From Candidatus Xenobia bacterium (GTDB lineage Bacteria; Vulcanimicrobiota; Xenobia; Xenobiales; QWHO01): DNA of 64,000 bases. Where the stretch lies: NCBI GenBank assembly GCA_045863235.1, contig BTUM01000006.1:96001-160000 (forward strand). Direction: 5' to 3'. Every line of letters starts with the position of its first letter. Within the stretch, counting starts at the first letter, position 1. The position numbers and the translations under genes were made by a program. The notes under the pieces are model-generated. The model did not search any database. It had not been told where the DNA came from and saw nothing but the letters and a program-made list of their open reading frames with translations. Shown here piece after piece: positions 24,113 through 52,702 of this stretch.

Positions 24113-24188
24113 CCGCGTGCGTTCTACGGTCGAATGCTGAAACCTACCGAGAAGGTGACACTTACCCGCTCAGACAACTTATCGCCAA

Positions 24189-26749: not shown

Positions 26750-26872
26750 CGGGGAGCCCTCCCGGGTCGGTTGGCAGGAACGTGCGTGGTGGTGTCAAAC
26801 ATCCGTGCCATGTTTTTGAGTGCTCAGGCAATAGAGGTCAATCGGATTTCAATAGACTCCCAAGAGGTTTGT

Positions 26873-27493: not shown

Positions 27494-27551
27494 CTGCGTC
27501 CGACAGACGGCAGGACGGCGCTTGCGCCGAGCAGAATTGCCCGAGTCAATC

Positions 27552-31033: not shown

Positions 31034-31785
31034 GGAATCCTCAGTCTCTCATGTCCGACTGGGAAAAGCACCTCATTGTGTTGCGGGAGCCTCATTCTCC
31101 TCCGTCCGAGGCCCTGCGCAGCTTGCGCGCCCGCCTTTCGCGTAACCTGGCCTCGGGCAAACGCCGGTTGGCCATCCTCAGCAGTTGGCCCGGCGAAGGC
31201 AAGTCTCAGGTCAGCATCAATGTTGCCGCGTTGCTGGCCCAGCTCAGTTTGAAGACCGTGCTGGTCGACGGTGACCTGCGTAAACCGACCTTGACCAGTG
31301 TTTTCAGCCTGGAGGATCGCCTGGGCCTCTCAGACGTGCTTGAAGGTCGATGTACACTGGCCCAGGCCACCGTGCCGACTGGCTATGACAATCTGTTCGT
31401 CATTCCGCGGGGTCAGGCTCGGGGCAACCCCGCCAATATTCTCGGACGCGAGATCATGGGTCCGGTGTTCGACGAACTCAAAGAGTTCGGGTGCGCCCTC
31501 GTCGATACGCCCCCGCTGTCAGCCTGCGGTGACGCCCAGTTGATCGCCACCCATCTCGATGGGGCGGTGATCGTCGTGAATCCGGACAGATGGCAGGGAG
31601 AGGCCGAGAGGCGGTACCTGCGGCAAGTCCGGGAGATAGGGCTCGAGATCCTGGGTGTGGTCATCAATGGGGCCGACAACAAGCACTTTGCCCAAGGTTA
31701 CGGCTACGGTTATGGTTATGGGTATGGTTATGGGTATGGTTATGGCGACAACGGACGGTCTTCGGAAAATGGCAAGAAGGGATAG
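30994..31785 (+). CDS. CpsD/CapB-family bacterial tyrosine kinase
   Basis: EALRSLR, Walker A SSWPGEGKS, Walker A' VDGDLRKP, Walker B VDTPP, ILGVVIN, C-terminal (GY)8 tyrosine cluster. Confidence 0.93.
   Translation: MEARIGKEQATGVRNPQSLMSDWEKHLIVLREPHSPPSEALRSLRARLSRNLASGKRRLAILSSWPGEGKSQVSINVAALLAQLSLKTVLVDGDLRKPTLTSVFSLEDRLGLSDVLEGRCTLAQATVPTGYDNLFVIPRGQARGNPANILGREIMGPVFDELKEFGCALVDTPPLSACGDAQLIATHLDGAVIVVNPDRWQGEAERRYLRQVREIGLEILGVVINGADNKHFAQGYGYGYGYGYGYGYGYGDNGRSSENGKKG
31696..31746 (+). repeat. Hexamer repeat ggNtay encoding (GY)8G autophosphorylation tail
   Basis: ggttacggctacggttatggttatgggtatggttatgggtatggttatggc. Confidence 0.9.
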
Positions 31786-31789
31786 ACCC

Positions 31790-32593
31790 TCAGAGTCTGG
31801 AGGCGACGATGAGCGCCAAGTTGTCCTGGCCTCCGGGAAAGCCGCGCACTCCTCGGAGGGCGCTTTGGGTCACCTCGCGACAAACCGCCGCCGGGGAGGG
31901 CCCGGACCTCAGGGCGTTGACAAGGTCATCCGCTCCAACGGAGGTCAGGGGCGACTGGTAGTGACACTCGTTCACGCCGTCGGTAAAGGCGAGCAAGAGC
32001 TCATCTGGAGATACCTGGAAACTGAGCGCCTCGCCCCAGGTGGGCTCGCAGGGCGCGTCACCACGAAGAAACTTGTCGTTTCCCCGGGTCAGGAAGCGGG
32101 CCCCGGCAGGCCCGACCAGGCACAGGCTGGAATCACCCCAAGCCAACCCGAAGCCCTCCCCACTGCGGGGGTCAAAAACGGCCAGCAACAGGCTGGTGCC
32201 AGACCGGCCGGGCCACGGCGGCTCCGTCAGCCCGGTGGAGAGAAGCGCCAACTCACCCCTGTTGGCCGGGACCCGGGGCCAGTCTGCTACCCGCGCGAGG
32301 ATCAGGTGGCTGCTTGCCTGGCCTCGGTGGCCGTCGGCGACCGCCAGCAAGATCCTGGACTCTTCCCATCCGACCAGCAGGCCGTCCTCGTTTGGCTGAG
32401 CCCGATCGCCCTTGAAAGCGAGCGAGGGGGCGTCTGGATCGGATCCGACGCTGAGCGCGCAGGCGACCCCTTCCACCGGCTCGACCAGCGAGAATTCTCC
32501 ATAGCGGCTTTCATCCCGGCCCAGCATGACATGGGTCTTCACGCAAAGGACTTGACCACGCTTTTGCCCACCTCCTTCCGAACGGCCGGTCAT
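31790..32593 (-). CDS. PP2C/PPM-family Ser/Thr protein phosphatase
   Basis: NED, AVADGHRG, WGDSS, FTDGV, GQDNLA. True start is probably 32542 or 32527. Confidence 0.85.
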   Translation of the reverse strand: MTGRSEGGGQKRGQVLCVKTHVMLGRDESRYGEFSLVEPVEGVACALSVGSDPDAPSLAFKGDRAQPNEDGLLVGWEESRILLAVADGHRGQASSHLILARVADWPRVPANRGELALLSTGLTEPPWPGRSGTSLLLAVFDPRSGEGFGLAWGDSSLCLVGPAGARFLTRGNDKFLRGDAPCEPTWGEALSFQVSPDELLLAFTDGVNECHYQSPLTSVGADDLVNALRSGPSPAAVCREVTQSALRGVRGFPGGQDNLALIVASRL

Positions 32594-34838
32594 GGCTGAC
32601 CCCAGCTACGATACCCAGCTGACCTGGAGCCTGCGGCTCGCGCTGATCCTGGTGTTGGGTATCTCTGTGGTGGAGACGCCCGGAGTCACAGCGCCCCCGC
32701 CGGCGTTGACGCTCATGGCGGCCGCCTCGCTGACGGTCCTATCTGGCCTGGCGATGATCAGTCTGCGGCTTTGCCGGGTCAGCCTTGCCGGCTTGATTAT
32801 CGGGCTCTGCCTGGCGGGATGGTCGGCGCTTGCCTCCCGCGAATCTTACGACCCGTTCCTTTCGCAATTGGGCTTTGCCAGCTGGGTGGCGGGCGCTGGA
32901 GTCCTGTCGACAGTCCTGCTGACAGCCAGCAGCGGTCGGACAGCCTGGCGCGAGACAGCCCACGCCATACTGGCCCTGATCCTGGCCATCTCGTGCTACG
33001 GACTTCTTCTGTCTCTGCGCGGAGGAGGCTGGGCCCGGGCCACGTTCACCAACTCCGATTGCTTCTCGCTGCTGCCTTTGCTGGGTCTGCTGCTCGTGTT
33101 TGGCCTCCTGCCCCGATCCACAGGTGGCGAGCAGAGCTACCTGCTGGTCGTCAGCGGAGCTCTGGCGATCGCAGTCTTCTTGTCCGGCTCGCGGGCCGGC
33201 GCGCTTGGCCTGATGGCCGGCATCGGCTGCTACGTTCTGCTCTCGCTGGGAAGACAATGGGGAACTCATCGCATCCTGGTGGTCATGCTGATTCCTCTGT
33301 TGATGGGCGGAATGCTGGTCATTCTGATGAAGGGGCCGGCGGCTCTCTCAAAATGGACCAGCCTGGCAAGCGGCAATGACACGCTGGGGGTTACTTCCCG
33401 GCTGAGCATCGTCAAAGTGGGCGTGCCGCTGGGTCTGGAGCACCCAATCTTCGGGACCGGGCCCGGCACCTTCCACCTGGCCTATCAGTCCCGTCGGCCG
33501 CCCACCCGAGGCGAGGACTACATGAACGTCGCTCACAACGACTATGTGCAGATTCTTGTTGAGATGGGCGTTCCGGGTTTGCTCCTGTGGCTCGGGTTGG
33601 TCGGCCTGGCGGCCGGGATTGGAGTTTATGTCACCCGCCACGAGTCGAGCTCCGAGCACGCCGGAGCCACTGCCGGCATCATCGCCATGGGCGTTTACGC
33701 GCTGGGAAATTTTGCGGTGCCGGTACCGGCGGACCTCATGTTCAGCCTGGCAGTCGTAGGGCTGGCACTGACTCACACAGCCCATCCGCCATCGCGCTAT
33801 CTCCCTCAGATTGTGGTGGCCGTGGCTCTCGTTTTACTGGGAGCGAGCAGTCTTCGCACTGGCCTCGCCGTCTGGCAGAATAACCGCGCTCTGGCTCGAG
33901 CCCAGATCCTGGAGGGTCGGTTGGACTGGCCGGGCGGAATCGAGGCGCTGAACCAGGCCGGGTCCAGAGATGACATCCGCATTTTGCTCGCCCAGGCCCA
34001 CCTGTGGGAACGTCAGGGCCTTCTCACGGAAGACAGGTCCCGGCTGGATCGAGCTGGGGAGACGCTCCGTCGGGCCCGCGCCCTTAGTCCGCTCAATCTG
34101 CTGGTCATACTCCGTTTGGCTGACGTCGAGGAGGCGCGCGGCCATCTGGCGGAGGCTGCCCTTCTCCTGGAGCAGGCCAATCGCCAGGCTCCCCATACCG
34201 AGTATGTGCGACTGGCCATGATCCGCAATCAGGTCTTGCGTGGCGACCTGGCGGGAGCAGCGGAGGGATTGTCGGGCTTGACCAGTCACCCGAGCCCGGG
34301 TGCTCTGGGTGAGATCCTCGCCCTGCTCGAGCTGAGCGAGTCTGGGCGCGGCCTGGAGCTGCTCAAGAGTCGGCAACCGCTCACGCCCGGGCTGGCTCGG
34401 GCGGCCAGAAGGGCAGGCACTTTCTGCCTGGAACGAAAGGACCTTCAGGCTGCCCGGGCGTTCTTCGAGTTGGCCGCCCCCATCGATCGAGCCAGCCGGT
34501 TGGCTCTTGCCAAGCTGGAAACGGACCCTGCCAGGCGCCTGACGATGCTGGCTGAGCTCCTAAACGGCCCAGACAGCGAAGAGACGCAGGAAGCTCGCCT
34601 GCTTTGGGGGCACGAGGCCCTGACGCGGAAAGAGTTTGATCAGGTCGTTGCCGTGCTCGAGCCGGTGCTCGTGTCGGAGCCCGAGAGTGTGCGCTTACGG
34701 TTGTTGCTGTCCCAGGCCTATGTCGGTCAGAAGCGGATCAGCGAAGCATCCAGGGTTCTCGAGGATGGATTCGACTTTGATCAAGGTTCGCGGCTGCATG
34801 ACGCGCACAAGCGACTGAGCGTCACGGCCTCTCCCTGA
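32592..34838 (+). CDS. O-antigen ligase (Wzy_C) family protein with C-terminal TPR region
   Basis: Multiple TMs, ATFTNSD, SGSRAG, HPIFGTGPGTF, AHNDYVQILVEMGVPG; helical repeats after the last TM. Confidence 0.88.
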   Translation: MADPSYDTQLTWSLRLALILVLGISVVETPGVTAPPPALTLMAAASLTVLSGLAMISLRLCRVSLAGLIIGLCLAGWSALASRESYDPFLSQLGFASWVAGAGVLSTVLLTASSGRTAWRETAHAILALILAISCYGLLLSLRGGGWARATFTNSDCFSLLPLLGLLLVFGLLPRSTGGEQSYLLVVSGALAIAVFLSGSRAGALGLMAGIGCYVLLSLGRQWGTHRILVVMLIPLLMGGMLVILMKGPAALSKWTSLASGNDTLGVTSRLSIVKVGVPLGLEHPIFGTGPGTFHLAYQSRRPPTRGEDYMNVAHNDYVQILVEMGVPGLLLWLGLVGLAAGIGVYVTRHESSSEHAGATAGIIAMGVYALGNFAVPVPADLMFSLAVVGLALTHTAHPPSRYLPQIVVAVALVLLGASSLRTGLAVWQNNRALARAQILEGRLDWPGGIEALNQAGSRDDIRILLAQAHLWERQGLLTEDRSRLDRAGETLRRARALSPLNLLVILRLADVEEARGHLAEAALLLEQANRQAPHTEYVRLAMIRNQVLRGDLAGAAEGLSGLTSHPSPGALGEILALLELSESGRGLELLKSRQPLTPGLARAARRAGTFCLERKDLQAARAFFELAAPIDRASRLALAKLETDPARRLTMLAELLNGPDSEETQEARLLWGHEALTRKEFDQVVAVLEPVLVSEPESVRLRLLLSQAYVGQKRISEASRVLEDGFDFDQGSRLHDAHKRLSVTASP

Positions 34839-34841
34839 GCG

Positions 34842-35495
34842 TCAGGCTTTGAGCCCCAGTCCCGTCAGGATGCGATCCAGAGTCGAGCGGGGAGGAGGCC
34901 CGTTCAGCAGTGCGCTCTCATGGGTCACGATGACGCCCAGAATCTCGGTCCCCTGTAAAAGGAACATCCCGGGTAGATCGTCGATTCCCTTGTCTCGAAA
35001 AGCTCGCTTGGAAACGATCAAGATGACTCCATCGGCCATGGAGGCCAGAGGGAAGGCTGCGCTCGAGGCTGACAGGGCGGGGGTATCGATCAACACGAGG
35101 TCATAGTGCTCCACACAATCCCTGAAAAAAGCTCGGGCTTCCTGGCTCGGTTGCAGATTGAGCGTGTGGTCGGCCCGCTCCAGCCCCAGCAGGTCCAGGT
35201 TCGGTTGGATGGCTTGAAATAGGGGTCTTTTTCGCTGTAGGCAATCGCGAAGGGCGTAACCGCTACACTCGAAGTGGCGGCTCAGCGCCGGGCAGAGGAA
35301 ATCGCCGTCTACGAGCAGTACCTTCTGACCCGCGTTGGCCGCCATGCGGCCAAGATCGATGCAGATACTCGTCTTGCCCTCGTGGGGCCAACTGCTGGCC
35401 AGGAGGAAGGTGGTTTTCCTGTCCCGGCGCCAAGCCGCCAGACGCGGGAGCAGCGAGGCTAACTGCCAGGAAGGTTCATATTCTGTTAAATACAC
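34842..35495 (-). CDS. Second CpsD/CapB-like kinase lacking the Tyr tail
   Basis: SSWPHEGKT, LLVDGDFLCP, LIDTPAL, ADGVILIV, ILGVIV; no Tyr in the C-terminal region. Confidence 0.82.
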   Translation of the reverse strand: MYLTEYEPSWQLASLLPRLAAWRRDRKTTFLLASSWPHEGKTSICIDLGRMAANAGQKVLLVDGDFLCPALSRHFECSGYALRDCLQRKRPLFQAIQPNLDLLGLERADHTLNLQPSQEARAFFRDCVEHYDLVLIDTPALSASSAAFPLASMADGVILIVSKRAFRDKGIDDLPGMFLLQGTEILGVIVTHESALLNGPPPRSTLDRILTGLGLKA

Positions 35496-35534
35496 AGGGA
35501 AGGATTAATTTTGACCCGCTCGAAGTCCTGCCCC

Positions 35535-36359
35535 ATGTTGAACCGGATACCGCATACGCTGTTGGTCCTCTCCCTTACCCTCGGTAGCATGCCGATGGTG
35601 ATCGGCAAGCCCGACGCGCCCGAACAAGCGATTCAATTCGCACAGGTGAAGGAGGGGCCGTGGCAGGCGACGCCTGTCGAGGGCGCTAACTGGGTGCGGT
35701 GCCAGAGCGCATCAGGTGCCAGCGTGGAAGTCAGTCCGGAAGTCAAGCTCCGCCTCTCCAATGGCACGCTCGCTCGCTACTGCGCTGATGACCATGGCGG
35801 CTATCGGGTCACCGATGTTCAGGGTCGTCTTTTCGTGCGGATCGACGGCAAGGCTCCTGTAGTCGTCCAGGCCTCCGGAACGACGACGAGCGCGACCAGT
35901 GGTGAGTTCATGCTGGTCAGCAAGGACGAGAAGACCCAGTTCATGGTCTTTTCCGGCGACGCAGCCCCCGTTTCGGGCGATACCACGGTGGCAGAGGCTA
36001 CGGTCCAGGTTCCGGCCGTCACAGATAACGGTGAGTTACTGGCGGGACCGGATATTCGTGATCGCGATGACGGCACTGACGAGGGCGGTCGCGATCGTGT
36101 GCGCGGCACCAAAACGTCGACACCCCCAGCCCCGCCGCCGCCAGGTCCGGTGACGCCGCCGCCGCCCGCCATTCCGCCGGCCCCCCCGCCCAACGTGACG
36201 CAGCCCCCGCCTCCCTCGCCTCCGCAGCAGGTTGCCGATCCTGGCGGTGGGTTCGATGCCGCGTGGTTGGCGATTCCTCTGGTCGCTGGTGGTTTAGCTG
36301 CGCTTCTTGCCGGCGGCGGTGGGGACAACAACGTTCCTCTCGCTCCTGCCAGCCCCTAG
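35535..36359 (+). CDS. Exported FecR-like beta-domain protein with Pro-rich stalk and C-terminal TM anchor
   Basis: Signal-like N-terminus; LRLSNGT...QGRLFV...FMVFSG FecR-like pattern; poly-Pro linker; AWLAIPLVAGGLAALLAGGGGDNNVPLAPASP terminus. Confidence 0.65.
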   Translation: MLNRIPHTLLVLSLTLGSMPMVIGKPDAPEQAIQFAQVKEGPWQATPVEGANWVRCQSASGASVEVSPEVKLRLSNGTLARYCADDHGGYRVTDVQGRLFVRIDGKAPVVVQASGTTTSATSGEFMLVSKDEKTQFMVFSGDAAPVSGDTTVAEATVQVPAVTDNGELLAGPDIRDRDDGTDEGGRDRVRGTKTSTPPAPPPPGPVTPPPPAIPPAPPPNVTQPPPPSPPQQVADPGGGFDAAWLAIPLVAGGLAALLAGGGGDNNVPLAPASP

Positions 36360-36369
36360 CATGCCTGAC

Positions 36370-37134
36370 TCAGCGCACGGCAATCGATAGAATGTGTGAG
36401 GCGGCTTCGGCCGCCTCCTCGCGTACGCCCCGAAAGTGGGGACCACCGGAGTCAGTCACCTGTCCGAGCTGGTGGAGGGCTCTCGCCCCAAGCCGCTTGG
36501 CGGCCACGGCGTTGCGAAAGAGCTCGAGTGTGGCTTGACCGGCTGTAAGCTCTTCCAGGCGGAGTCCGGCCCCCGCTTCGAAGCGAATGGCCAGGACCGA
36601 GATGCTGGTCGCATGCTTGGACCCGGGAGGGGGCAAAGCCCAGTGTGTCCGTTCCGGGAGCCGCATCATCAGGGGTCGGGGGAACGGAAGTAAGCGTCCG
36701 TGCTCGTCGAAAACGGCGTATTCATCCGAGTAGTACTCGGCCCCGGCCTCGACCAGGGCCTTGACCAGGCTGGACTTGCCCTGGCCCGATCGGCCCGGAA
36801 TGACGATTCCCCGTCCGCGCCAGCAGACCGAGCCTGCATGCACAAAGATGAATTCGCTGCGGGTGGCCATCGTTAGATGAACGTGTCTTCCCAGGGCTTC
36901 CCCTAGAGAGTCCTCATCGGGGCCCGACAGGAGGTGCTCGCCGTCCAGCGTTGCGCAAAACATCGTTTCGCCAGGTCCAGGGCGGAGAACTCGATAGTCT
37001 TCGACCCCGGTTCGAGCTGGACGCGCTTGCCAGTCAGGCAGCATGATCCACGGGCGTATCTTTTCCAGCAGGGAGTCGCAGTCCGACCTCAAGCTCAACG
37101 CCACCCCAAACTCTTCCACGTTCACGGATCCCAC
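36370..37134 (-). CDS. HPr kinase-related P-loop kinase
   Basis: FVHAGSV...GIVIPGRSGQGKSSLV...YYSDEYAV...PFPRPL, the HprK-related signature. Confidence 0.88.
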   Translation of the reverse strand: MGSVNVEEFGVALSLRSDCDSLLEKIRPWIMLPDWQARPARTGVEDYRVLRPGPGETMFCATLDGEHLLSGPDEDSLGEALGRHVHLTMATRSEFIFVHAGSVCWRGRGIVIPGRSGQGKSSLVKALVEAGAEYYSDEYAVFDEHGRLLPFPRPLMMRLPERTHWALPPPGSKHATSISVLAIRFEAGAGLRLEELTAGQATLELFRNAVAAKRLGARALHQLGQVTDSGGPHFRGVREEAAEAASHILSIAVR

Positions 37135-37176
37135 GGAGAGAGGGTTTTGTTCGAGTTTTGCGAACTCCTGCGCACC

Positions 37177-37983
37177 ATGTCTCTAATTCCCAAACATCGT
37201 GAACGCTCATCGTGTGCTGACAAGCATGACACCCTCAAGTGGACCTGCGGATTCTCGGTTAGCGCGGAAGGATTTCGCATTCAAGTTGAGGGGATCGAGC
37301 GTGCCGCCCTGATTGGGGTAAGGACGAACGATGCGGGGCTGTTACCGGTTCTGCGCTCTTTCTTGCCTCCTCATTGGCAGGAGGTCGAGGTAGAGGAGGT
37401 GGATCTTCTCTACTCCTTCTTGGCGGGCGGCGAAGGTCAGCGCAGGGGGGTTCGCAACTACAACCTTTCCTACGTGAACTGCACCATGATGGGTCGCGAG
37501 CTGGATCCAGATCAGGCTCTCAGCGGCTTTCGCTTGCTGATGTATGTCCAGACCCTCTACAAGCTTCCGATCCTCGAGAAGTCCGTCATCGTCCGCGCCA
37601 GTCTCGCCGGCGATTCGAGACGGATCGTCGCCCTGGTGGCGGAGCAAGAGCCCGGTGAGACTTGGAAGTCGAATCTTCAGAAGACGGGTTTGAAGCCTTT
37701 GACTTGCCCCTACCTGCTCCTGGACAAGGACGGGCAGCTCGTCGAGCCTTTTGCTCGCATCATGGGACTGCCCGGCCCTTTGACGGATATCGTCTTTATC
37801 GCCTCTGAGCCCTCGAGCTTTACGCCGGGCCAGGGCGTGCTGAGCCTCTTTTCCCATTCTCTCGGGACCAGTGAGAGCGTTCACGGCCAGGAGAGACTCG
37901 GGGCGCTCGCCAAAGCGATGCAGTCGACGCGCATTCACAACGTCTCCGATCCAAAGGAGCTCGTGGGCGCCCTGGCACTTTGA
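37177..37983 (+). CDS. Degenerate HPr-kinase-like paralog (no Walker A)
   Basis: Parallels the divergent kinase along its length: IGVRTND...LPPHWQ vs LSLRSDC...LPDWQ; YLLLDKDGQLVEPFAR vs YAVFDEHGRLLPFPR; FTPGQGVLSLFSHS vs LTAGQATLELFRNA. The P-loop is replaced by VAEQEPGETW. Start estimated. Confidence 0.65.
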   Translation: MSLIPKHRERSSCADKHDTLKWTCGFSVSAEGFRIQVEGIERAALIGVRTNDAGLLPVLRSFLPPHWQEVEVEEVDLLYSFLAGGEGQRRGVRNYNLSYVNCTMMGRELDPDQALSGFRLLMYVQTLYKLPILEKSVIVRASLAGDSRRIVALVAEQEPGETWKSNLQKTGLKPLTCPYLLLDKDGQLVEPFARIMGLPGPLTDIVFIASEPSSFTPGQGVLSLFSHSLGTSESVHGQERLGALAKAMQSTRIHNVSDPKELVGALAL

Positions 37984-39032
37984 CCGGTTGCAGTCCCGCG
38001 CTCCGGCGCTTGTTCCTTGCCTACGCTCGGGACGAGCCTTTTGCCCTGGTGCCCCCCGATCATGAGAAGTTTCTGGCCGAATGTCGCTATCACGGCCTGA
38101 TGGGCTGTCTGGCCGATCTGGTCGAGCGCCATGGCCATTCGAGTCGCGAGTTTGCTTCGTTGTGCCGCGAGGCTTTCAAAGCAGAGTTCTTCAAATGGGC
38201 GCGTTACCAGGCTCTGCAAAACCAGCTGGAGGAGGCTTTGGACAGAGCCGATCTGGACGCTCTGCTGCTGAAGGGGGCGGCGCTCAGGATGACCGTCTAT
38301 CGAAGACCGGGTCTGCGTCCACTTTCCGACATCGATCTCCTCGTCCGGCCGGAAGCCTTCGATGAGACGGCGCGGGCCCTGGTGGGAATCGGACTGCTTT
38401 CCTCTCCGCACGGGAACCGGTTCTCCGACTTCCAGGGTCGGAACGTGGATTTGCACGGTCCTGAGCTTGGCCGAGTCGAGGCTGGCTGCGGGCTGCGGAG
38501 CCAGGATTTGTGGGCGGGCAGCCAGCCCGTTCCGGGCTCGCGCGTGTGGAGAGTGCTCGAGCCGCGCACGAATCTGGCGCATCTGGCCGTGCACGCGCTG
38601 AAACATTCTTACAGTCGCCTGGGATGGCTGATGGACATCGAGCTGGTGGCGCGAGAAGCAGGGGTGCGGCAAATCGAGCACGTGGCAGCCGCTCGCGCCG
38701 TTCAGTCTGCGCTCTATGTTTGTGGAGAGCTGGTGGGACGGCGTGCCGACCCCCCCGGGCGCTTCCAGGGCAGGATTCTCCTGGGAATGCTGGCGCGGGA
38801 TCTGCACCCCCTGGGCCAGATGTTGCTGGCCTGGCATCAGCCCCGCTGGCGCGACCGCTTCGATTTTCTTCGGGAGTCGGCGAGCGAAGCTCCGGCATAC
38901 GAGACCACCGATTCCGTGACCAGCCGAATGGTACGCCTGAGCATCAGGCTGGTCAGGCTTCTGGTCGAGCAAGTTCTTCCCAGGGGCAGGAAATCCATGA
39001 GTCGGGACGAAGCCCGTGCACCTGATGATTGA
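37980..39032 (+). CDS. Nucleotidyltransferase (NTP_transf_5-like)
   Basis: LLKGAAL...YRRPGLRPLSDIDLLV, VDLH, HLAVHALKH, WLMDI; TTGA overlap with the upstream stop. Confidence 0.9.
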   Translation: MTGCSPALRRLFLAYARDEPFALVPPDHEKFLAECRYHGLMGCLADLVERHGHSSREFASLCREAFKAEFFKWARYQALQNQLEEALDRADLDALLLKGAALRMTVYRRPGLRPLSDIDLLVRPEAFDETARALVGIGLLSSPHGNRFSDFQGRNVDLHGPELGRVEAGCGLRSQDLWAGSQPVPGSRVWRVLEPRTNLAHLAVHALKHSYSRLGWLMDIELVAREAGVRQIEHVAAARAVQSALYVCGELVGRRADPPGRFQGRILLGMLARDLHPLGQMLLAWHQPRWRDRFDFLRESASEAPAYETTDSVTSRMVRLSIRLVRLLVEQVLPRGRKSMSRDEARAPDD

Positions 39033-39735
39033 AAAATTGCCGCGTATCAGAGCAGGTGTGTTGCCCACGGAACTGGGTGACGAGTTACTGATTTATTCTC
39101 CCGAGACCGAGACGGCGCACTGTCTGGGTGTCGTTGGAAAGGTCGTCTTTCATGGTTGCCAGTCCGGAATGGAGCCTGGCGATCTGGTCGCGCGGGTCAC
39201 CCAGATGGGGATTGAGGACGGCGAAGCTGCCATGCTGGGAATGCTGGAGCAACTGGCTGAAAAGGGCATTACGGAGCCAGCTCCCATTGCGTCCGAGTTC
39301 GACCGACGGCGGTTTCTCGCGTTGACCGGCCGCTGGGCCTCAGCGATGGTCGTGGCTTCGGCTATCGCTCCCAGGCCTGCGGAGGCCGGTACTTGTTATG
39401 AGTGCTTGACGGTTGGCGCTCCTACCTTCGCTCCCGTGAACTGTAACACGTGCAGTCAGATCTGTAAGTTTACCGCGGCCGGGGCCTGCCAGGCCACAGC
39501 CGTTTGCTGTTTCGAGTATCGTCTCTCGAACACCACCATCGACCCGACCGGGGCCTGCAATCTCGCCGAGGCTCTCGGCCTCTACGGGTGCCGATCGATT
39601 CCCGCCGCCCCGAGCGTTTTCCATTCTCACTGCGGGACCGCTCGGACCAACTGCATCAGTGCCGGAGGAACCCCGGGAACCCTCTACTATTGCTGCGCCT
39701 GCGCCGGTAACGCTCCGACCTTTAGCTGCACCTAG
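39025..39735 (+). CDS. PqqD/RRE-domain protein fused to a twin-arginine-like signal and a Cys-rich core (RiPP-like precursor)
   Basis: ELGDELLIYSPETETAHCLGVVGKVVFHGC...LEQLAEKGI (PqqD pattern); FDRRRFLALTG...APRPAEA; 115-aa C-terminal region with 16 Cys. Confidence 0.82.
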   Translation: MIEKLPRIRAGVLPTELGDELLIYSPETETAHCLGVVGKVVFHGCQSGMEPGDLVARVTQMGIEDGEAAMLGMLEQLAEKGITEPAPIASEFDRRRFLALTGRWASAMVVASAIAPRPAEAGTCYECLTVGAPTFAPVNCNTCSQICKFTAAGACQATAVCCFEYRLSNTTIDPTGACNLAEALGLYGCRSIPAAPSVFHSHCGTARTNCISAGGTPGTLYYCCACAGNAPTFSCT

Positions 39736-39757
39736 GAGTTCCATCCGAGGATTCCAG

Positions 39758-39792
39758 AAAGGCCGGCTCTTTGGCCGGCTTTGTGTGTTTTG
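39758..39792 (+). terminator. Possible terminator after the Cys-rich precursor gene
   Basis: ggccggc-tctttg-gccggct stem (one G-U pair), followed by ttgtgtgtttt. Confidence 0.45.
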
Positions 39793-39867
39793 ATCGTCAG
39801 GACAGGGTGAAGGTGTTTGCTCTGTTCGTCGAAAGGAAGTTGGGCCGGGCAAACGAACGCACGAGCG

Positions 39868-41232
39868 GTGAAGGATGGCGTCATTTCGGCCCTGCGTTCG
39901 AGACTGAGCGTACCTGAAGCCTGGGGGCCGGCCAGTAAGGCGCTAAAGCTCTCGATCCTTACGTTCGCCGCTCAGATCGTCGCGATGGCCGCCTCCCCCA
40001 TCCTGACCCGCCTGTTCACCCCGAGCGATCTGGGCATTCTCGGCGTATTCGGTGCTACCGTCACGCTCATCAGCTTGCTGAGCTTTTTTCGCTACGAGCA
40101 AGCCATCCCGCTGGCCGAAGGCGACGAAGGTGGCGCCGGAATCTTGCAGCTGTGCCATCTTTGCCTGCTCGTCAGCGTTCTTCTCCTGAGCGGCGCGGTC
40201 TGGATGGGAGGGCCGGAGTTGATGGAGCTCATGCTCATCCCCAGCCTGGCTCCCTACCGGGTCCTCCTGCCGCTGGGCGTCCTGGGGGCGGGGATCTACA
40301 CCTTAAGCGAGTTCTGGCTGATTCGGCAGCGGCGCTACAGTTTCTTCGGCCTGACGCGGATCATCCAGATCGTTGTCATGATCGCCCTGCAGATCGTCGC
40401 CGGTATCTGCGGTGTCGGCGTGGTCGGACTGCTGGCCGGACAGGTGATCGGAATGGCCTTCGGGGGGGTACTGGTGTTGGCTCAGCTCTGGTTCCGTCGC
40501 CCGGTGGGCTGGCGTCAGATATCCTACCAGGCCCATCGCTATCGCCACTTCGGCTTCTACACCAGTTGGTCGACCATGATCAAGGCGGCCGCTTTGCAGG
40601 GGCCCATTCTCCTCATCGCTCACTTCTACGGTACCCAGGTCACCGGCTGGTTCAATCTTGCCCTCCGGGCCGTCACGATTCCGGGCGACATCTTCGCCAA
40701 GGCACTCTCTCGCGTCTTCCTGGGCGAGGCCGCTCGTCTTCAGCACGAGAATCGTCGGGGTCTGCTCTCCCTCTTCTGGCCGATTTTACGGCTGCAGGCG
40801 ATGATCGGAGTCGGTATCGCGATTGGAACCGTGGTCGCGGCCCCGCTTGCCTTCAAACTGGTCTTCGGCGCAGCCTGGACCCAGTCCGGGGTGTACGCCC
40901 AGTATCTCAGTTTGGCCATGCTGGCGCAGTTCATCGTCTCACCGATCGAGAACTTCCTGACCGTGGCCGAGCGGCAGGGCCTGTATGCATTCCGCGAGGT
41001 GCTGCGCGGGCTCCTGTCCCTGGGGCCGTTATGCGTGGCTTTCTGGATGAAGGCCAGCCCGAATGTAGCGATTCTTTGCTTCAGCCTGGGGGCCGCCAGT
41101 TTCGAGCTGGTCAGCCTGGCCCTGGCCACACTGGCTCTTCGCAGCGCCACGCAGAGCCCAATGCAGAGCGAAGGAAATTCCGAACCATCCCCGAGCTCGT
41201 CGGATCGATCAGAAGACTCCCCCCAAACGTAA
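39868..41232 (+). CDS. wzx: Wzx-type oligosaccharide flippase
   Basis: SPILTRLFTPSDLG, RYEQAIPL, about 12 TMs, LVFGAAW..SG. Start estimated. Confidence 0.9.
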   Translation: MKDGVISALRSRLSVPEAWGPASKALKLSILTFAAQIVAMAASPILTRLFTPSDLGILGVFGATVTLISLLSFFRYEQAIPLAEGDEGGAGILQLCHLCLLVSVLLLSGAVWMGGPELMELMLIPSLAPYRVLLPLGVLGAGIYTLSEFWLIRQRRYSFFGLTRIIQIVVMIALQIVAGICGVGVVGLLAGQVIGMAFGGVLVLAQLWFRRPVGWRQISYQAHRYRHFGFYTSWSTMIKAAALQGPILLIAHFYGTQVTGWFNLALRAVTIPGDIFAKALSRVFLGEAARLQHENRRGLLSLFWPILRLQAMIGVGIAIGTVVAAPLAFKLVFGAAWTQSGVYAQYLSLAMLAQFIVSPIENFLTVAERQGLYAFREVLRGLLSLGPLCVAFWMKASPNVAILCFSLGAASFELVSLALATLALRSATQSPMQSEGNSEPSPSSSDRSEDSPQT

Positions 41233-42718
41233 TCGAGCCTACGCTCAGTACGCCGCCGCGCGTTCCCTGCGGCTCGCGCACGACGATCTCGGCTCCGGCA
41301 TACCAGCTTTTTCCCCGCGCCACGACCGTGAAATCTGCGGGAGTCTCCGGCTGCGTGCAGTCGATCTCCCAGCCGGCTGCGCCCTGGCCGTTCAGGATCC
41401 CCGCGCTGCCCCCATACTCATGCCCAGGACCGCGGGGTAGAGGCTGATTCAACGAGCTGTTTCCGAAGCTAGTCTGACCCGGGTAGGTCGCTTCCCCGTA
41501 GATCCAGTGGTTTGGAGCCGTGATTTCATAGCCGGCGGCCCGGCCCATGCCTCCCAGGCGGACCCCCAGCAGCTTGCCTTCGTTGGCGCAGCTCTGAGCA
41601 AAAACCATGCTGACGCAACGGATGCTGCCGTCCGGGAAAAGCTCGATCTCCCTGAAGATGCTGTTGGCGCCCAGACAGCAGATCCAGGCTCCCTGGTCAT
41701 GGGCCTGCAACAGGACCTGGTACATGGCCCGCGACCAGTACTCCGAGTGGGTCGAGAGCACCACTACTCGGTAGCCATCGAGGACTTTTGGTCGCTGCTC
41801 GAGCTCGGCCTGGGAGATCAAGTCATAGGGGATCCCCTGTTTCTCCAGCCAGGCCAGGACACGCCATTCCCCGGCCGCCAGATGGTTCTCGAAGGGCGCC
41901 ATCAGCTCGTCCGACTCAAGCCCGCTGTTGAGGAAGGGACGATGAATGGAGAGCTTCCCGAACCGCCACGGATCGTCCAGTTCCCGCTCCGCCGGAAGAA
42001 AGCGGCGCAGCCACTTGCGCCACCCGCCTGGAATCAGGTCGCGCGGTGTCCAGGCTGGCTCGCGCGGTGTGGGAGGGGGCGGGACGTCGCCTTCATAATT
42101 GCGATAGCGGCTCCGCCCTCCAAACGGGTTGTAGGCCAGCCAGGTCGTGGTAGAGGCCAGTACCAGCACGTCGCTGCGGCGTCTCGAGCCAGAGCTCACC
42201 ACCAGTGGCAGGGCGTAGGCCGGATGGCCCTCGGACTCGAGCAGCCAGCTGTACAGACCTGGTTCGTTCGGAGCGCTGTAGCGCAGGACCGGTTTCCAGT
42301 CCAGGCCCTCGGCTACGAAGGGAGCGTCCGGAACCACTTGAGGGCTGGGCTCGGCTAGCGCTCGTCGGTCCACGACCGAGAGTTCGGCGCCATGCCGACG
42401 CAGGGTCAGTCGACAGGGAGTCGTGGTGTGCAGATGCAAAGTGGCATCTTGACCGGGATCCAGCGAAAGGCGGTCGCCGTATCCGAGCGGTCTATCCCCC
42501 AGCAGGCGCACGTGTTCGGGCACCTGGTCGCGTGGGTAACGCTTGGAGCCGTAACCCGGCAGGTTGAATTCGAGCTCATCGCCCGGCTCCAGGCGCCAGC
42601 GGCCGTCGGAATTGGTTTCGGTCGAGCCCAGCACGTCTCCCCGGGCGCTGAGGGACCGGACCTGGACGCCTGCCAGCGGCCAACACAACTCGGCACATGA
42701 GACTCTTCCCGATTTCAT
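41111..42718 (-). CDS. N,N-dimethylformamidase beta-subunit-like protein
   Basis: STTTWLAYNPFGGRSRY, LSIHRP, WLEKQGIPYD, LSTHSEYWSRAM, LGANSIF, GWEID, VGSITF; ATGA-coupled to the sulfotransferase stop. Confidence 0.78.
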   Translation of the reverse strand: MKSGRVSCAELCWPLAGVQVRSLSARGDVLGSTETNSDGRWRLEPGDELEFNLPGYGSKRYPRDQVPEHVRLLGDRPLGYGDRLSLDPGQDATLHLHTTTPCRLTLRRHGAELSVVDRRALAEPSPQVVPDAPFVAEGLDWKPVLRYSAPNEPGLYSWLLESEGHPAYALPLVVSSGSRRRSDVLVLASTTTWLAYNPFGGRSRYRNYEGDVPPPPTPREPAWTPRDLIPGGWRKWLRRFLPAERELDDPWRFGKLSIHRPFLNSGLESDELMAPFENHLAAGEWRVLAWLEKQGIPYDLISQAELEQRPKVLDGYRVVVLSTHSEYWSRAMYQVLLQAHDQGAWICCLGANSIFREIELFPDGSIRCVSMVFAQSCANEGKLLGVRLGGMGRAAGYEITAPNHWIYGEATYPGQTSFGNSSLNQPLPRGPGHEYGGSAGILNGQGAAGWEIDCTQPETPADFTVVARGKSWYAGAEIVVREPQGTRGGVLSVGSITFGGSLLIDPTSSGMVRNFLRSALGSAWRCEEPVWPGPG

Positions 42719-43689
42719 GAGTAACCGTAGCGCTCGCGGATCCGCGCCGTCAGTTCGTTGGCGATGTCCGCCTCGATGCGAGTAAGGTCCTTCTGCCAGC
42801 GCCCGATCTGCCGTTGGGAGAGCTTCACATCGTACAAGCCCGGGTGAGGCTCCAACTCCCAGAACCGACAGACTTCCGCCGTCGCCCGTTCGCGCTCGCA
42901 AATCAGGTCTTCGAGACGAATCTCCAGTACGCGCTCGGCCGGAACTCTGGCCTTGATTTCCTGCCAGCGATCGAGCAGGTCGTTGAGCACGCGGGCACAC
43001 TTTTCGGCAGTATCCGGCATCCAGGATTGTTGTTTGAAGGAGGCGATAACATCCCGAGGGTCGCGCACGATGTGAACCAGCTTGCTCTCGGGCAAAATCT
43101 GCAGGATGCGGTCGAACCAGAGGATGTTCCAGGTATTCTTCTCCAGATAGCAGGTGGCGTTTTGGCGGGCCAGCACCCCATCGATGAAGTCGCCCATGAA
43201 GGTCTGGAGCAGCGAAGCCACCTCGGCCGGCTGGGGCCTGCCGTAGAACATTCTCTGCGGCTCGAGCAGGGGTTGGCCGACCCACCCGCCCGGGAACGAG
43301 AAGCTGGAAAGGCGACCGAGCAGATCATCGACGAGTTGGAAGTAGCCTGGCAGGTAAACACTGGCCGATACCCCACTGTAACGCGGCGTGATCTTGAAAG
43401 GGAGCCTGCGCAAAGGTCCCAGGCGGCTCGCGCGCAGCAGAATCTTGTCCAGGAGTGGCGCCCGCCCGGCGCTCAGAAGAACGGCCCGTAATCGTTTCAG
43501 ACGGCAGTCGTAGTGAAACGGCGACCAGCCTTCGAGAGCCTGGAGGAAGTCCAATAGCCCGTCCGGATCGATGAGGAAGCGCAGCTCTCCGATATCGCAC
43601 ACCGCAGGGTGGCGGGCGAAGACCTCTCCCATGACGGTCGTACCGCTTCGCCCGCTGCCACCGATGAGGCAGATTCTCCGGCTACCCAC
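42715..43689 (-). CDS. Sulfotransferase family protein
   Basis: IGGSGRSGTT (5'-PSB), LEKNT, HIVRDPRDVIAS (3'-PB), RLEDL, IGRWQ. Confidence 0.92.
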   Translation of the reverse strand: MGSRRICLIGGSGRSGTTVMGEVFARHPAVCDIGELRFLIDPDGLLDFLQALEGWSPFHYDCRLKRLRAVLLSAGRAPLLDKILLRASRLGPLRRLPFKITPRYSGVSASVYLPGYFQLVDDLLGRLSSFSFPGGWVGQPLLEPQRMFYGRPQPAEVASLLQTFMGDFIDGVLARQNATCYLEKNTWNILWFDRILQILPESKLVHIVRDPRDVIASFKQQSWMPDTAEKCARVLNDLLDRWQEIKARVPAERVLEIRLEDLICERERATAEVCRFWELEPHPGLYDVKLSQRQIGRWQKDLTRIEADIANELTARIRERYGYS

Positions 43690-44812
43690 TTCCGAGAAGC
43701 CTGAGCTTGGCGTTGCGGATCATGCGATAGAGCTTGATGTCACTGGCATAGGTTTCGTGAGGCACCGGTGGGGTCTGCATAATCGCTTCGAATTCTCCCT
43801 CCGAGAAGCCCAGTTTTTTCAAAACGAACGGCCGGTCGATCTTGAGCTCTTCGGAGTCGTAGGGTGGACTCTGCAACGTCTCCAGAGCCGCCTCACGGGT
43901 AATCTCTTGATTGTTGATCAGGCTCGAAAAGTGAATGCGACGCTTGTCGATACCCCACTTACGAGGCAGCACATAACCTTGATAGAACTTGGTGAAGATC
44001 GATTCGTAGTGCTTGTAGCCGTAGGAGCGGAACCCGTACTCGCGGTTGAGGGTTTCCAGGGCCATGTCGCGACGGTAGAGCATGTTGTCCAGAAGGTAGA
44101 CCGGTCGGCACCAGAACGCCAGACGGCGCGAGAGCAAGTAGCTAAAGAAGCTCATCTGGGGAAACGTCCGCAGGCGCACCGTACCAAACTTGCGGTGAAT
44201 CCCCCGCAGGTTGCGCAAGTCGCTCTTGATCCAGTTCCAGGAGGGAGGCATGTGGGACTCGGTCGCGGTATTGTTGCCCGCCAGCGAATAGCGTATGTTG
44301 TATTTGCGTGCAACGCGGAAATTGGTTGCGAACTGGGCGTGGTCGGTAAGTAGCTCGATGTCCAGGACCGACGCTTTGAGAAACGCCCTCTGGAGGTCAC
44401 GGAACTCCTCCCAGTTGATCACCAGGCTATGGAGATCGAAATTGCACTTTTCCAGGATATTCTTGATATTCGTGACGGCGACTTCGGAGTTCCAGCCGTT
44501 ATCCAGGTGAACGACCAGGGGGCGCAGACCGTGTACTCGGGCCAGATGCGCCGTGAAGGCGCTGTCCACGCCCCCACTGATTCCTAGCACGCAATCATAG
44601 CGCCGGCCGCGCCCGTCCCGCTTGATCCGATTCACCAGGCGGGCGACCCGCTCGTCCGCCTCGGCCTGCGTAGTGGGGAGTTTGGCGCGCATCGTATCCA
44701 CATGATGGCAATAGTTGCAGATGCCCTGCTCGTCGAAGGTGATGTCGCGGTCGGTCGTGTCCATGACGCAGCGGACGCAAATCTGATAACTCAAGGCTCT
44801 TCCTCCGGCCAA
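43682..44812 (-). CDS. N-acetyl sugar amidotransferase (WbuX/PseA-like)
   Basis: CVRCVMDTTD...GICNYC, YDCVLGISGGVDS, HLDNGWNSE, KHYESIFTKFYQ, DKRRIHFSSLI. Confidence 0.93.
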   Translation of the reverse strand: MAGGRALSYQICVRCVMDTTDRDITFDEQGICNYCHHVDTMRAKLPTTQAEADERVARLVNRIKRDGRGRRYDCVLGISGGVDSAFTAHLARVHGLRPLVVHLDNGWNSEVAVTNIKNILEKCNFDLHSLVINWEEFRDLQRAFLKASVLDIELLTDHAQFATNFRVARKYNIRYSLAGNNTATESHMPPSWNWIKSDLRNLRGIHRKFGTVRLRTFPQMSFFSYLLSRRLAFWCRPVYLLDNMLYRRDMALETLNREYGFRSYGYKHYESIFTKFYQGYVLPRKWGIDKRRIHFSSLINNQEITREAALETLQSPPYDSEELKIDRPFVLKKLGFSEGEFEAIMQTPPVPHETYASDIKLYRMIRNAKLRLLGSG

Positions 44813-45714
44813 CCGAGGCGTCGCGCCACCTCTTGCTCCACGGGTTCCTTGCGAGCGACCTCGACCGGAAAACCCAGGGCGAGCGCGGCCACATCATCGA
44901 AGTTGCGGCGGCCGGGTGGCCCCACGCCCAAACGCGCCAGGGTCTGACGCAAAGTTTTGACAGGGTCCTGGCGTCTGTACACGTCCGGGAAGGTTACCGC
45001 CACGATCTGGCCGTCCAGAGTCTTGCCGACCTTGGCTGTCTCATATTCGATTCGCACTGGCCAGCCCACAGAGACCGCGTCATAAACCTCAGTCAGGAGC
45101 TCAGGGTACATGCGCATGCATCCGTGCGTCAGGCTATTGCCGACGTTGAGCGGGTCGTTGGTGCCATGGATCCCGGTGCGCGGCAAGGAAAGACCGATCC
45201 AACGCTCCCCCAGAGGATTTTTGGGCCCCGGACCAACCGGAGTCCGGTCCCTGGCCCACGAGGGCGGGTACCAGGTTGGATTCTTGATCTTCTCGATGAT
45301 CGTGAACTGCCCGGTGCGTGTCGAGAAACGCCCTCCTTCGGCGGCCTCGTCACCGATCGAAATCGGATAGAAGTTGCGGAATTTCCCGCCCTGGAAAAGG
45401 TAGAAGCCTCTTTCAGGCAGATTCACCACGATTCCGTTGACGGGGGGGTTGGCCGGCAAGATTCGCCAGGTCGGGATAATGAGTCGGGTTCCGGGTCGCA
45501 CGCGCAGAGTCGTGACGGGGAATCCGTTGGCGAAGGCCACATGGTCGATCGCCAGCCGGAACCGGCGCGAGATGGACAGCAGATCTTCCCCTTCCACCGC
45601 GACGTGCGTTTTGAGCTGGCCGACGCACCCGCGAGCGGTCTCGGCGCGTCCGGGGGCCACGAGGCAGAGGAACAGGCACAGGCACAGGCACAGGCACAAG
45701 AAGAGGAGCCTCAC
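44791..45714 (-). CDS. L,D-transpeptidase (YkuD family) with LysM-like N-domain
   Basis: IVVNLPE, NPTWYPP, GPGPKNPLG, GIHGTN...THGCMRM. Confidence 0.93.
   Translation of the reverse strand: MRLLFLCLCLCLCLFLCLVAPGRAETARGCVGQLKTHVAVEGEDLLSISRRFRLAIDHVAFANGFPVTTLRVRPGTRLIIPTWRILPANPPVNGIVVNLPERGFYLFQGGKFRNFYPISIGDEAAEGGRFSTRTGQFTIIEKIKNPTWYPPSWARDRTPVGPGPKNPLGERWIGLSLPRTGIHGTNDPLNVGNSLTHGCMRMYPELLTEVYDAVSVGWPVRIEYETAKVGKTLDGQIVAVTFPDVYRRQDPVKTLRQTLARLGVGPPGRRNFDDVAALALGFPVEVARKEPVEQEVARRLGWPEEEP
45673..45696. repeat. (caggca)4 hexamer repeat encoding (CL)n in the L,D-transpeptidase signal peptide
   Basis: Four perfect caggca units; protein reads LFLCLCLCLCLFLCL. Confidence 0.85.
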
Positions 45715-46250
45715 GACTCTTCCCCGCCTTCGAGCGCCTGCGGTTGCCAGCGAACCGAGGACAGGATTCCCAGGAAGACACTGGCCTGACCGGCGTAACC
45801 AGCACTGAGACAGCGGCAGTGAACGATCAACTCCTGGCCGTCGCGCACAGCGACGACCCGCACATGGCGCTCCACGGCGCCGTCTTCATTGGTTGCCTCG
45901 AACACCAGCCGACGGCCCGCCACTCCGGCGATTGTGAACGGCTTATCCTCCAGGATACAGCCACCCAGGCGCACGACCACCGCGTAACGTAGGCCGGTCC
46001 AGATTCCGCGCTGCGTTCGGCCCTGGACCGGCTCAACGAAGACCGCAGCAGCCGATGACTTGTCGGGCGACCAGAGCTGAAAGGCCTGGTCCGCTTCCAG
46101 ACCGGAGGTTTCGACAACCCAATCGGCGGGCGGAGTCAGGGTCAGGCCGAGCTCCTCGTTGCTCACGGGCTCCGCGCCATAGACGGGTCCCCAGACCAGC
46201 CAGGCGACAAGCAAGCGCAGAGCCAAAGAAGTGAGGGCCCGTGACAACAA
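45711..46250 (-). CDS. Secreted hypothetical protein (possibly PsbP/DcrB-like fold)
   Basis: Signal peptide; GLTLTPPADW, TIAGVAGRRLVF, FLGILSSVRW pattern. Confidence 0.55.
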   Translation of the reverse strand: MLSRALTSLALRLLVAWLVWGPVYGAEPVSNEELGLTLTPPADWVVETSGLEADQAFQLWSPDKSSAAAVFVEPVQGRTQRGIWTGLRYAVVVRLGGCILEDKPFTIAGVAGRRLVFEATNEDGAVERHVRVVAVRDGQELIVHCRCLSAGYAGQASVFLGILSSVRWQPQALEGGEES

Positions 46251-47039
46251 CTAAGGTCGGGCCTCTTTCTTGAATAGCAAAACGGTTCCGAAGCCCATCT
46301 GCGGGCAAACCCCGCGCTTGAACCACCACCGATTGAGCTGAAGCAGGATGCGCCGGAGCCAGGGCCAGCGGACCCGCGTATACTGCTCGGTCAGAATGCC
46401 ACGACGCTCGATCAGGCGCAGCCCCAGGGCAGGCGTCTGCCGAAGCAGGAAGCCCACGTCCAGCCGCCGAGTGCAGAGCTGCCCGCTCTTGTGCTCGCTC
46501 CAAAACTCCAGACCCCACGGGGTGGCGACCATGCGTGGGCTCTTCTTGCGCAGCAGCCGGCGCATCCAGACATCGAGACGCGACTCCGGGGAGCGAAGCG
46601 AGATCTCGCTCAAAGCCAGCAAACCTCCCGGCCTGAGAACCCGCACCAACTCGTGGAGCGCCTGCGCAACATCGGGGATATGCATGAGCACGCCACAAGC
46701 CACCGCGTGGTCCATTGAAGAGCTGGCCAGGGAGAGTCGTGTCAGGTCGTCCTGGCGCAACGAGATTCGCGTCTCCAGGCCAGCCTCCGCTACGACTCGC
46801 TGCCCCTCGGCCAGAACCCATTCCGAGGCGTCCACCCCGGTGACCTGAAGCCCCTGGCGAGCTAAGATCACGGACTTGTTGCAACTGCCGCAACCCGCAT
46901 CCAGCACCTGGGTTCCGCCAGCCGTTTTGAAGCGGCCGGCCAGGTGCTCGAAGATGGCAATATCGACGATCTGGCGGTCAGCCTGCCGGTAGGTTGCGAT
47001 CCAATTTCGGTGGATCTGGCCATCGTTCCAGAAACTCAT
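46251..47039 (-). CDS. Class I SAM-dependent methyltransferase
   Basis: VLDAGCGS, GVDAS, VLMHIPD, RVLRPGG. Confidence 0.9.
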   Translation of the reverse strand: MSFWNDGQIHRNWIATYRQADRQIVDIAIFEHLAGRFKTAGGTQVLDAGCGSCNKSVILARQGLQVTGVDASEWVLAEGQRVVAEAGLETRISLRQDDLTRLSLASSSMDHAVACGVLMHIPDVAQALHELVRVLRPGGLLALSEISLRSPESRLDVWMRRLLRKKSPRMVATPWGLEFWSEHKSGQLCTRRLDVGFLLRQTPALGLRLIERRGILTEQYTRVRWPWLRRILLQLNRWWFKRGVCPQMGFGTVLLFKKEARP

Positions 47040-52546: not shown

Positions 52547-52702
52547 TTGCTCCTAATCCGGGAGCTTTCTCCGTCCGTCTCTTAGAAGCCTCTCACGACG
52601 TTCACGATTTGTCTTTTGGCGAATTGGCATCCGCCGGGCCAAGGACCCACCGCGCGCCGATGTCGTTCGTAGGTAGGTAGTTGATCAGAGGCAGAAACCG
52701 AG

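Follow-up and report, generated by a model that had tools for sequence, protein, structure and literature searches.

The 64,000-nucleotide window analysed here (contig BTUM01000006.1, positions 96,001 to 160,000, of a Candidatus Xenobia bacterium) carries on its forward strand a gene at 39025..39735 whose 236-residue product joins, in one polypeptide, a RiPP recognition element (RRE; RiPP, a peptide made on the ribosome and modified after translation), a linker, a twin-arginine-type leader and a Cys-rich core. The reading that we favour, with a probability of about 0.5, is that this RRE-fusion protein is a self-docking, disulfide-rich precursor that is exported by twin-arginine translocation (Tat) and is related to the linear polyphosphorylated peptide (LPP) system of Bacillota; its export, cleavage and modification are what we infer from the evidence below. 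The RRE probably grips the export signal on its own chain for as long as enzymes encoded nearby are tagging the protein. The RRE/PqqD-fold domain comprises residues 1-86 (39025..39282, + strand), the internal leader residues 92-121 (39298..39387, +) and the core the last 115 residues (39388..39732, +). The leader begins with FDRRRFL from residue 92 (DRRRFL, 93-98; RR, 94-95 at 39304-39309), runs through an uncharged stretch and ends in AEA at positions -3 to -1, such that AEA|G spans residues 119-122 and Gly122 is the first residue of the core.

A phmmer search returned 347 cluster representatives at E <= 0.001, and the 150 listed members and one further member were analysed. The resulting alignment of 143 rows leaves out eight long or tandem-RRE forms; Ala(-1) is aligned in 142 family sequences, and 379 sequences (effective number 241) were pooled for conservation and covariation. 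The RRE-leader-core fusion is not an assembly artefact, because the orthologs share it and because one RNA-library contig spans the gene. This contig covers 39050-39732 with zero differences and is not a measure of transcription or its level; the other RNA-library runs (X2-X4) gave short pieces only over the gene. An alternative GTG start lies at 39016. A hidden internal start before the RR was rejected, as a Met within 25 residues upstream of the RR occurs in only 30 of 142 family members, and the signal is therefore internal rather than the product of a second start. A hairpin downstream of the gene (39759-39782) was not above chance (4 found versus 3.4 expected).

The AlphaFold2 (AF2) model built from the 143-row alignment has a predicted local distance difference test score (pLDDT) of 88.5 and places three strands (residues 13-17, 20-25 and 30-34) ahead of three helices (36-47, 51-60 and 66-79), with His32 in the third strand. 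The best structural match of residues 6-86 among 48,161 chains is the lasso-peptide RRE TbiB1 (5v1u; Z 10.3, root-mean-square deviation 1.6 over 81 residues), followed by the lasso RRE 6jx3 (Z 10.2), and Foldseek also puts these two first (E 0.005). The RRE-fusion protein itself matched nothing in Pfam, PF05402 included, or in NCBIfam, and a sequence search of the PDB returned nothing beyond designed repeat proteins and a single weak match to a dehydrogenase. Its aligned family, however, is matched by PF05402 in 100 of 143 members (E <= 0.01) and weakly by TIGR04353 in 89 of 143 (best E 4e-9). Together with the TbiB1 match, this bears out the PqqD-like domain that a sequence-only reading had proposed at the N-terminus. 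The two Cys residues of the RRE (window 39121-39159) are conserved in 69% (C33) and 88% (C45) of 151 sequences, and C33-C124 ranks among the top inter-domain couplings. In some members (at L008, L010, L031 and L041, and in P0028, P0040 and P0150), two tandem RREs appear, judging by sequence, to precede a single leader.

The RR pair of the leader is intact in 374 of the 379 pooled sequences. Across these, conservation reaches 88% at P108, 97% at S/T112, 97% at P116, 80% at Ala(-3) and 96% at Ala(-1). At least 13 uncharged residues follow the RR in 140 of 142 sequences, a TatFind-style pattern fits 127 of 142, and the distance from RR to AxA is near-fixed, mostly 27-32 residues, with the RR at a median position of residue 96 (142 sequences). 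The anatomy of a Tat substrate, by this motif pattern, is present: a twin-arginine motif, an uncharged h-region and an AxA c-region. The sequence-only reading had said that a loss of the RRxF and AxA motifs among homologs would speak against an export signal; RR and AxA are kept beyond chance, and only the Phe of RRxF drifts (20-33% family-wide), at a position that stays hydrophobic. TatC is encoded in the source genome and in 55 of 61 genomes (the source and 60 relatives), and its co-occurrence was discarded as uninformative.

That drift of the Tat Phe position (Met 41%, Phe 20% and Leu 16% in the 379 sequences) would suit a purely cytoplasmic RiPP leader, in which the RR is a recognition motif for an enzyme or protease and the product leaves otherwise or stays inside. 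The Tat signal model TIGR01409 likewise matches only 21 of the 143 aligned members, and peptidase C25, a family that cuts after Arg or Lys, is encoded in 13 of 23 scanned loci of a distant lineage described below. However, the uncharged stretch and the AxA at near-fixed spacing speak against such a leader, Cys parity in the cores points to an oxidising compartment, and no peptidase or exporter was found among the 53 scanned genes of the window; we regard a cytoplasmic leader as quite improbable. The sequence-only reading had offered export signal and RiPP leader as alternatives for this segment, and both probably apply: it looks like a leader for the RRE and like an export signal at once.

An internal Tat-like motif behind a folded domain had been called atypical. 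It is less so than claimed, because FecR of E. coli, a class V Tat substrate, gives a precedent: in the accessible text of PMC13673990 and PMC12036975, its twin-arginine signal (RR at 79-80) lies behind a folded cytoplasmic domain and its C-terminal domain is exported. The layout here is of the same type, with RR 94-95 behind a folded cis RRE and no conserved internal Met. It differs in that class V signals are described in those texts as non-cleaved, whereas the conserved AxA argues for cleavage, and in that an RRE serves as the cis domain and apparently binds the signal. The protein could instead be an uncleaved, membrane-anchored class V substrate like FecR, with the Cys-rich domain as a periplasmic sensor and the RRE as a cytoplasmic output controlling the kinase or the machinery for polysaccharide. 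The family's RR position near that of FecR and the conserved context of cell-envelope genes are in accordance with this idea, but the AxA and its preceding prolines are strongly conserved, the hydrophobic stretch is weak here (peak Kyte-Doolittle value over 13 residues, 1.5) and contains Arg103, and the stretch that would span the membrane covaries with the RRE. We consider a FecR-like sensor distinctly unlikely.

The claim that the RRE binds the leader in cis gained indirect support as regards docking. The canonical leader-binding site of RREs is the cleft between beta3 and alpha3, as described in the accessible part of PMC12710340, and the AF2 model has a strand at residues 110-114, a candidate docking segment. 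Mean-field covariation over the 379 sequences, which recovered plausible intra-RRE contacts, gave H32-S112 as the top RRE-leader coupling (rank 8 overall, z 4.4): His32 pairs with Ser or Thr at 112 in 339 of 339 rows, compared with 30 of 39 for other residues at position 32. Eleven of the 20 highest-ranking inter-domain couplings, against 1.55 expected, connect the RRE beta-strands with leader residues 105-116. Random shuffling of leaders (15 runs) gave a mean of 1.3 and a maximum of 3, and resampling of leaders among the 30 nearest RRE neighbours (15 runs) a mean of 4.7 and a maximum of 8. Covariation above both controls thus suggests that the RRE may dock leader residues ~105-116 as an added strand, and it does not separate cis from trans binding. 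Complex prediction with RRE(1-86) and leader(90-123) gave a median of 0.27 against a mark of 0.32 and was counted neither for nor against docking. A NisB-NisA structural match extending to model residue 117 was likewise not counted as a sign of docking, because a TigE match also extends to 114.

The core sequence after AxA is hypervariable family-wide. Six-Cys frameworks, longer Cys-rich domains and Thr/Glu tails devoid of Cys all occur, and occasionally a VWA domain; a C-C-CC-C-C spacing recurs in 21 of 142 cores. An even number of Cys residues was found in all 65 cores of at most 60 residues with at least four Cys, and in 106 of the 127 cores with at least four Cys, related sequences not being independent. 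In one relative genome, G013, 15 of 16 long cores are even over a range of 12-22 Cys. This even-Cys bias favours disulfides over metal sites, and judged from parity the core Cys residues would be paired as disulfides.

The core of the RRE-fusion protein has 16 Cys with two CC pairs, 15 Thr, 7 Ser and two copies of APTF, as the sequence-only reading had described; CxxC occurs three times rather than twice, in two separate motifs and a third within CCAC, and a CxxCxxxC spacing is also present. Two of these features, APTF and the even count, are without weight. The APTF repeat was rejected as a signal, being missing in all four closest homologs, and so was the count of 16: of these Cys residues 14 are conserved, C162 is present in 17 of 23 orthologs and C210 is private (1 of 23); across the 23 orthologs, the total is odd in 16. 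The CxxC and CxxCxxxC spacings and the odd orthologs would fit a metal-binding domain (Zn, Cu or Fe-S) that receives its metal in the cytoplasm; the use of Tat would thereby be explained, and the tension, taken up below, between Tat and disulfides resolved. We hold this to be very improbable in view of the 65 even short cores, the C-C-CC-C-C framework and the even long cores of G013, and His makes up just 0.9% of core residues. AF2 folds the core alone into a small sheet and one helix (pLDDT 75). None of the 48,161 chains matched it at Z >= 2 and Foldseek gave no match at E <= 0.001, which does not prove a new fold; an Atlas search with the core gave no usable match. A core-only profile matched five proteins, all with the RRE and RR ahead of the core.

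A possible site of modification lies at the start of the core. Ser or Thr occupies core position +2 in 126 of 142 sequences, compared with 16% elsewhere in cores, mostly directly before the first Cys, although the exact cleavage position may shift by one residue. In the RRE-fusion protein this residue is Thr123 (39391-39393, +), a candidate phospho-acceptor. The enzymes that might act on it are encoded next door. An NTP_transf_5 nucleotidyltransferase (37980..39032, +; PF14907 at E 1.7e-29, over the cut-off; LKG...DID motif) has a stop that overlaps the start of the fusion gene by 8 nucleotides. Ahead of it lies an HprK-like paralog without a P-loop, a candidate pseudokinase (37177..37983, +), kept in all four orthologous loci and possibly a scaffold or regulator of the kinase. 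The kinase candidate (36370..37134, - strand) is a divergent HprK-related protein with an intact P-loop, GRSGQGKS, that matches TIGR04352 at E 7e-15 and 55 bits, below the curated cut-off of 200. Kinase, pseudokinase and nucleotidyltransferase flank all four full-length orthologs (the window, G004, G023 and G019) in varying gene order. The sequence-only reading had suggested that the RRE may hold back export until the modification is complete, and for that idea the HprK-like kinase and NTP_transf_5 are now candidate enzymes.

This enzyme pair recalls the LPP system (lppA-K-B-S-D-N), in which, according to the accessible part of PMC13381572, LppK phosphorylates the core peptide at Ser3. As described there, the two systems share an RRE, an HprK-like kinase and an NTP transferase within polysaccharide loci, a conserved leader with a variable C-terminus, cleavage of the signal-peptidase type and a Ser/Thr acceptor just past the cut. 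They differ in several respects: the RRE here is fused to its own precursor, whereas LPP has a discrete RRE and a separate precursor; the leader is of the RR-hydrophobic-AxA type (DRRRFL...AEA) rather than YxxPxVLxHQxIxFETxxS; the dedicated peptidase resembling signal peptidase I (SpI) and the MsbA-like exporter of LPP were not found among the 53 window genes; and a 115-residue Cys-rich folded core, an extra P-loop-less kinase paralog and diderm hosts are found here. Of the known systems, LPP is the one whose working the RRE fusion would resemble most, but the fusion falls outside it, since neither a discrete RRE nor a YxxP leader, a dedicated SpI or the exporter turned up.

Among other relatives, lasso B1 RREs (TbiB1, 5v1u; 6jx3; with kinase/nucleotidyltransferase tailoring of the paeninodin type) are the closest structures to residues 6-86. 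The family's P-x-V/I followed by a strand resembles the PxL half of the lasso leader motif [W/Y/L]xxPx[L/I] given in the accessible text of PMC12710340. In contrast to lasso systems, no lasso cyclase or B2 was found in the window, no aromatic residue stands at P-3, and the architecture is fused. The TIGR04353 (HPr-rel-A system PqqD family chaperone) and TIGR04352 kinase models are weak matches to the family and its neighbours, with none for the RRE-fusion protein, and cover neither leader nor core. Redox enzyme maturation proteins (REMPs) bind Tat signal peptides (PMC13673990), and the role proposed here for the RRE, binding of a twin-arginine signal during cargo maturation, is of the same kind. 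REMPs, however, are free-standing proteins that serve redox cofactor enzymes, and none was among the listed fold matches of our model.

The family extends well beyond the window. A profile of 21 short members matched 3,447 of 8,000 candidates, counted irrespective of the leader. Their sources include Blastocatellia and Pyrinomonadaceae, where they are filed as "PqqD family" proteins; Acidobacteriota make up most of the nearest Atlas clusters, and the single ortholog found in the genome collection is filed under Vulcanimicrobiota. In the source genome and its 60 relatives, 22 of 61 genomes contain a family match, and the relatives hold 66 in all (71 rows minus four RRE-only rows and one fragment). 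A nucleotidyltransferase gene lies within 5 kb of 15 of these 66, namely 15 of 41 outside G013, a fraction lowered by short contigs, and 0 of 25 in G013. In the distant lineage, judged with local hidden Markov models on the best 80 of 554 metagenome loci, the short subfamily is accompanied by a nucleotidyltransferase in 48 of 80 and a kinase in 23 of 80; the longer loci have the former in 19 of 24 and the latter in 9 of 24, and PF14907 was confirmed in both distant-lineage nucleotidyltransferases tested.

Several observations weigh against our reading. G013, with 26 family matches, has no nucleotidyltransferase within 15 kb of any of 25 copies, and 17 of its loci have varied housekeeping neighbours, among which a kinase appears once and a pseudokinase once. 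G013 copies thus mostly lack nearby enzymes, which would then have to act in trans or not be needed at all. These orphan copies keep the Ser/Thr near +2, and behind signal peptidase sites small residues are in any case frequent. The orthologs of the core have the odd Cys counts given above. On the docking side, the rank of H32-S112 is unstable (1-48 of 2480 over 12 subsamples), the box of strands by leader residues was drawn after the first coupling list, and the RRE-fusion protein has Met at the family's Pro108. Tat normally carries folded proteins and disulfides normally form after export, which puts a disulfide-rich Tat cargo under tension. Finally, LppN is without detectable activity in the LPP study, as far as the accessible part of PMC13381572 reports.

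These orphan copies, and a cargo that spans six-Cys peptides to a VWA domain, would be expected if the protein, rich in disulfides, were exported without modification and the RRE only shielded the leader as a built-in chaperone of the signal peptide, like a fused REMP, the kinase and nucleotidyltransferase serving other substrates of the polysaccharide locus; the binding of Tat signal peptides by REMPs (accessible part of PMC13673990) points the same way. However, the linkage of kinase, fusion and nucleotidyltransferase recurs in two distant lineages, with the 8-nucleotide overlap here, and the same enzyme pair modifies LPP precursors in the available text of PMC13381572. We therefore consider a chaperone without modification unlikely, while keeping it in view.

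In the self-docking, Tat-exported precursor that we favour, the N-terminal domain would fold as an RRE in the cytoplasm, as the model and its structural matches suggest, and grip the hydrophobic half of the leader (~105-116) as an extra strand of its sheet, like lasso B1, as the covariation suggests. The HprK-like kinase could then phosphorylate Thr123 just past the cleavage site, and NTP_transf_5 may extend the phosphorylated Thr123 with a nucleotide or sugar, going by gene linkage and LPP biochemistry. The released leader would act as an internal twin-arginine signal, in line with its conserved motifs and the FecR precedent, and Tat would move the core out. Housekeeping signal peptidase I would cut after AxA, with RRE and leader remaining behind. 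The core would form approximately seven disulfides, as Cys parity suggests, and may act outside the cell or at its surface; gene context suggests a link to the polysaccharide layer.

That context is a Wzx/Wzy-type polysaccharide locus at 22973..48181, in which functional membership of the fusion gene is putative. It contains genes for glycosyltransferases, a sugar transferase, an AsnB-type amidotransferase, tyrosine autokinases, an O-antigen-ligase/TPR protein, a flippase, a sulfotransferase, a WbuX-like protein and an export protein. The AsnB protein scores 474 bits for TIGR01536, over the cut-off, and 215 bits for the lasso cyclase model (cut-off 525), as a glutamine-hydrolysing type. No leader peptidase, ABC exporter, radical SAM protein or lasso B2 peptidase was found among the 53 scanned window genes, which are heuristic gene calls that may miss small genes. 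A tyrosine autokinase with a GY-repeat tail is encoded at 30994-31785, with a shorter homolog at 34842-35495 (- strand). The gene at 35511-36359 encodes a protein with a signal-like N-terminus and a Pro-rich tail whose G004 homolog matches a FecR domain (E 1e-6). A VKOR and DsbA-like fusion at 49597-50517, 10 kb away, is the sole VKOR match in the source genome; it was rejected as a conserved partner, as none of four relatives carries one. Pel-like exopolysaccharide genes (PelG, a DUF3492 glycosyltransferase, PilZ, GAF and TPR) lie at 51440-63924.

Other loci show how varied the settings of the family are. The source genome has a second member of 153 residues (8365-8826 in the L001 8365-9929 region, contig C10) with a six-Cys core and a nucleotidyltransferase gene directly after it, adjoining a fatty-acid/polyketide-like gene cluster. 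The 26 matches in G013 lie on 7 contigs, are mostly orphan, have 12-22 Cys and share the C..AR...Y.CC.C end of the core. One G013 locus (L033:5065-9855), the most RiPP-like that we met, has two members in tandem, whose Thr/Ser/Glu-rich cores of 14 and 26 residues lack Cys, next to genes for an HprK-like kinase, three sulfotransferases and a methyltransferase. In the long loci of the distant lineage (L045-L123), the cassette is accompanied by genes for TPR proteins, peptidase C25 (13 of 23 scanned loci; one with SLH domains), DUF4214 proteins and an O-antigen ligase, which hints at a system for surface attachment. A peptidase C25 search of the source genome gave no match, and neither did the control of that search. 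The source genome also has a separate lasso-type cluster (L125:5285-11838, contig C46) with NTP_transf_5, an ABC exporter, a discrete PqqD-type B1, a B2 over the cut-off, an HprK-like kinase and a cyclase-like protein of 433 bits (cut-off 525), echoing the LPP/paeninodin co-occurrence. No RRE fusion was found near a second HprK-like kinase of this genome (L124:5693-6517, contig C29).

No paper describing an RRE-leader-core architecture was found in the literature searched, which took in no subscription papers and not the supplements of PMC12710340 and PMC7470986, where such proteins may be listed; precursor-fused RREs are not described in the accessible text of the RRE-Finder papers. According to the available part of PMC12710340, 21% of PF05402 proteins exceed a discrete RRE in length and carry no further annotation. 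More tentatively, with the odds rather against it, we propose a widespread class of precursors whose leader is read twice: a cis RRE would read it first and present a Ser/Thr to the kinase-nucleotidyltransferase pair, and Tat would follow, taking it for an internal signal that can be cleaved, which would make a sixth class of Tat substrate. Vulcanimicrobiota and Acidobacteriota would then have an export cassette that gates itself and serves hypervariable miniproteins rich in disulfides, with up to 26 per genome, possibly phosphate-bridged to a surface glycan. If true, RiPP leader binding and Tat targeting, thought to be separate recognition systems, would merge, and a cleavable internal class would be added to the five classes of Tat substrate. 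An RRE-fused precursor with a single candidate acceptor would also offer a compact system for the NTP_transf_5 reaction, which was silent in the LPP study. Moreover, a large reservoir of bacterial disulfide-rich miniproteins, mis-annotated as "PqqD family protein" and including a core without a match among solved folds, would be opened.

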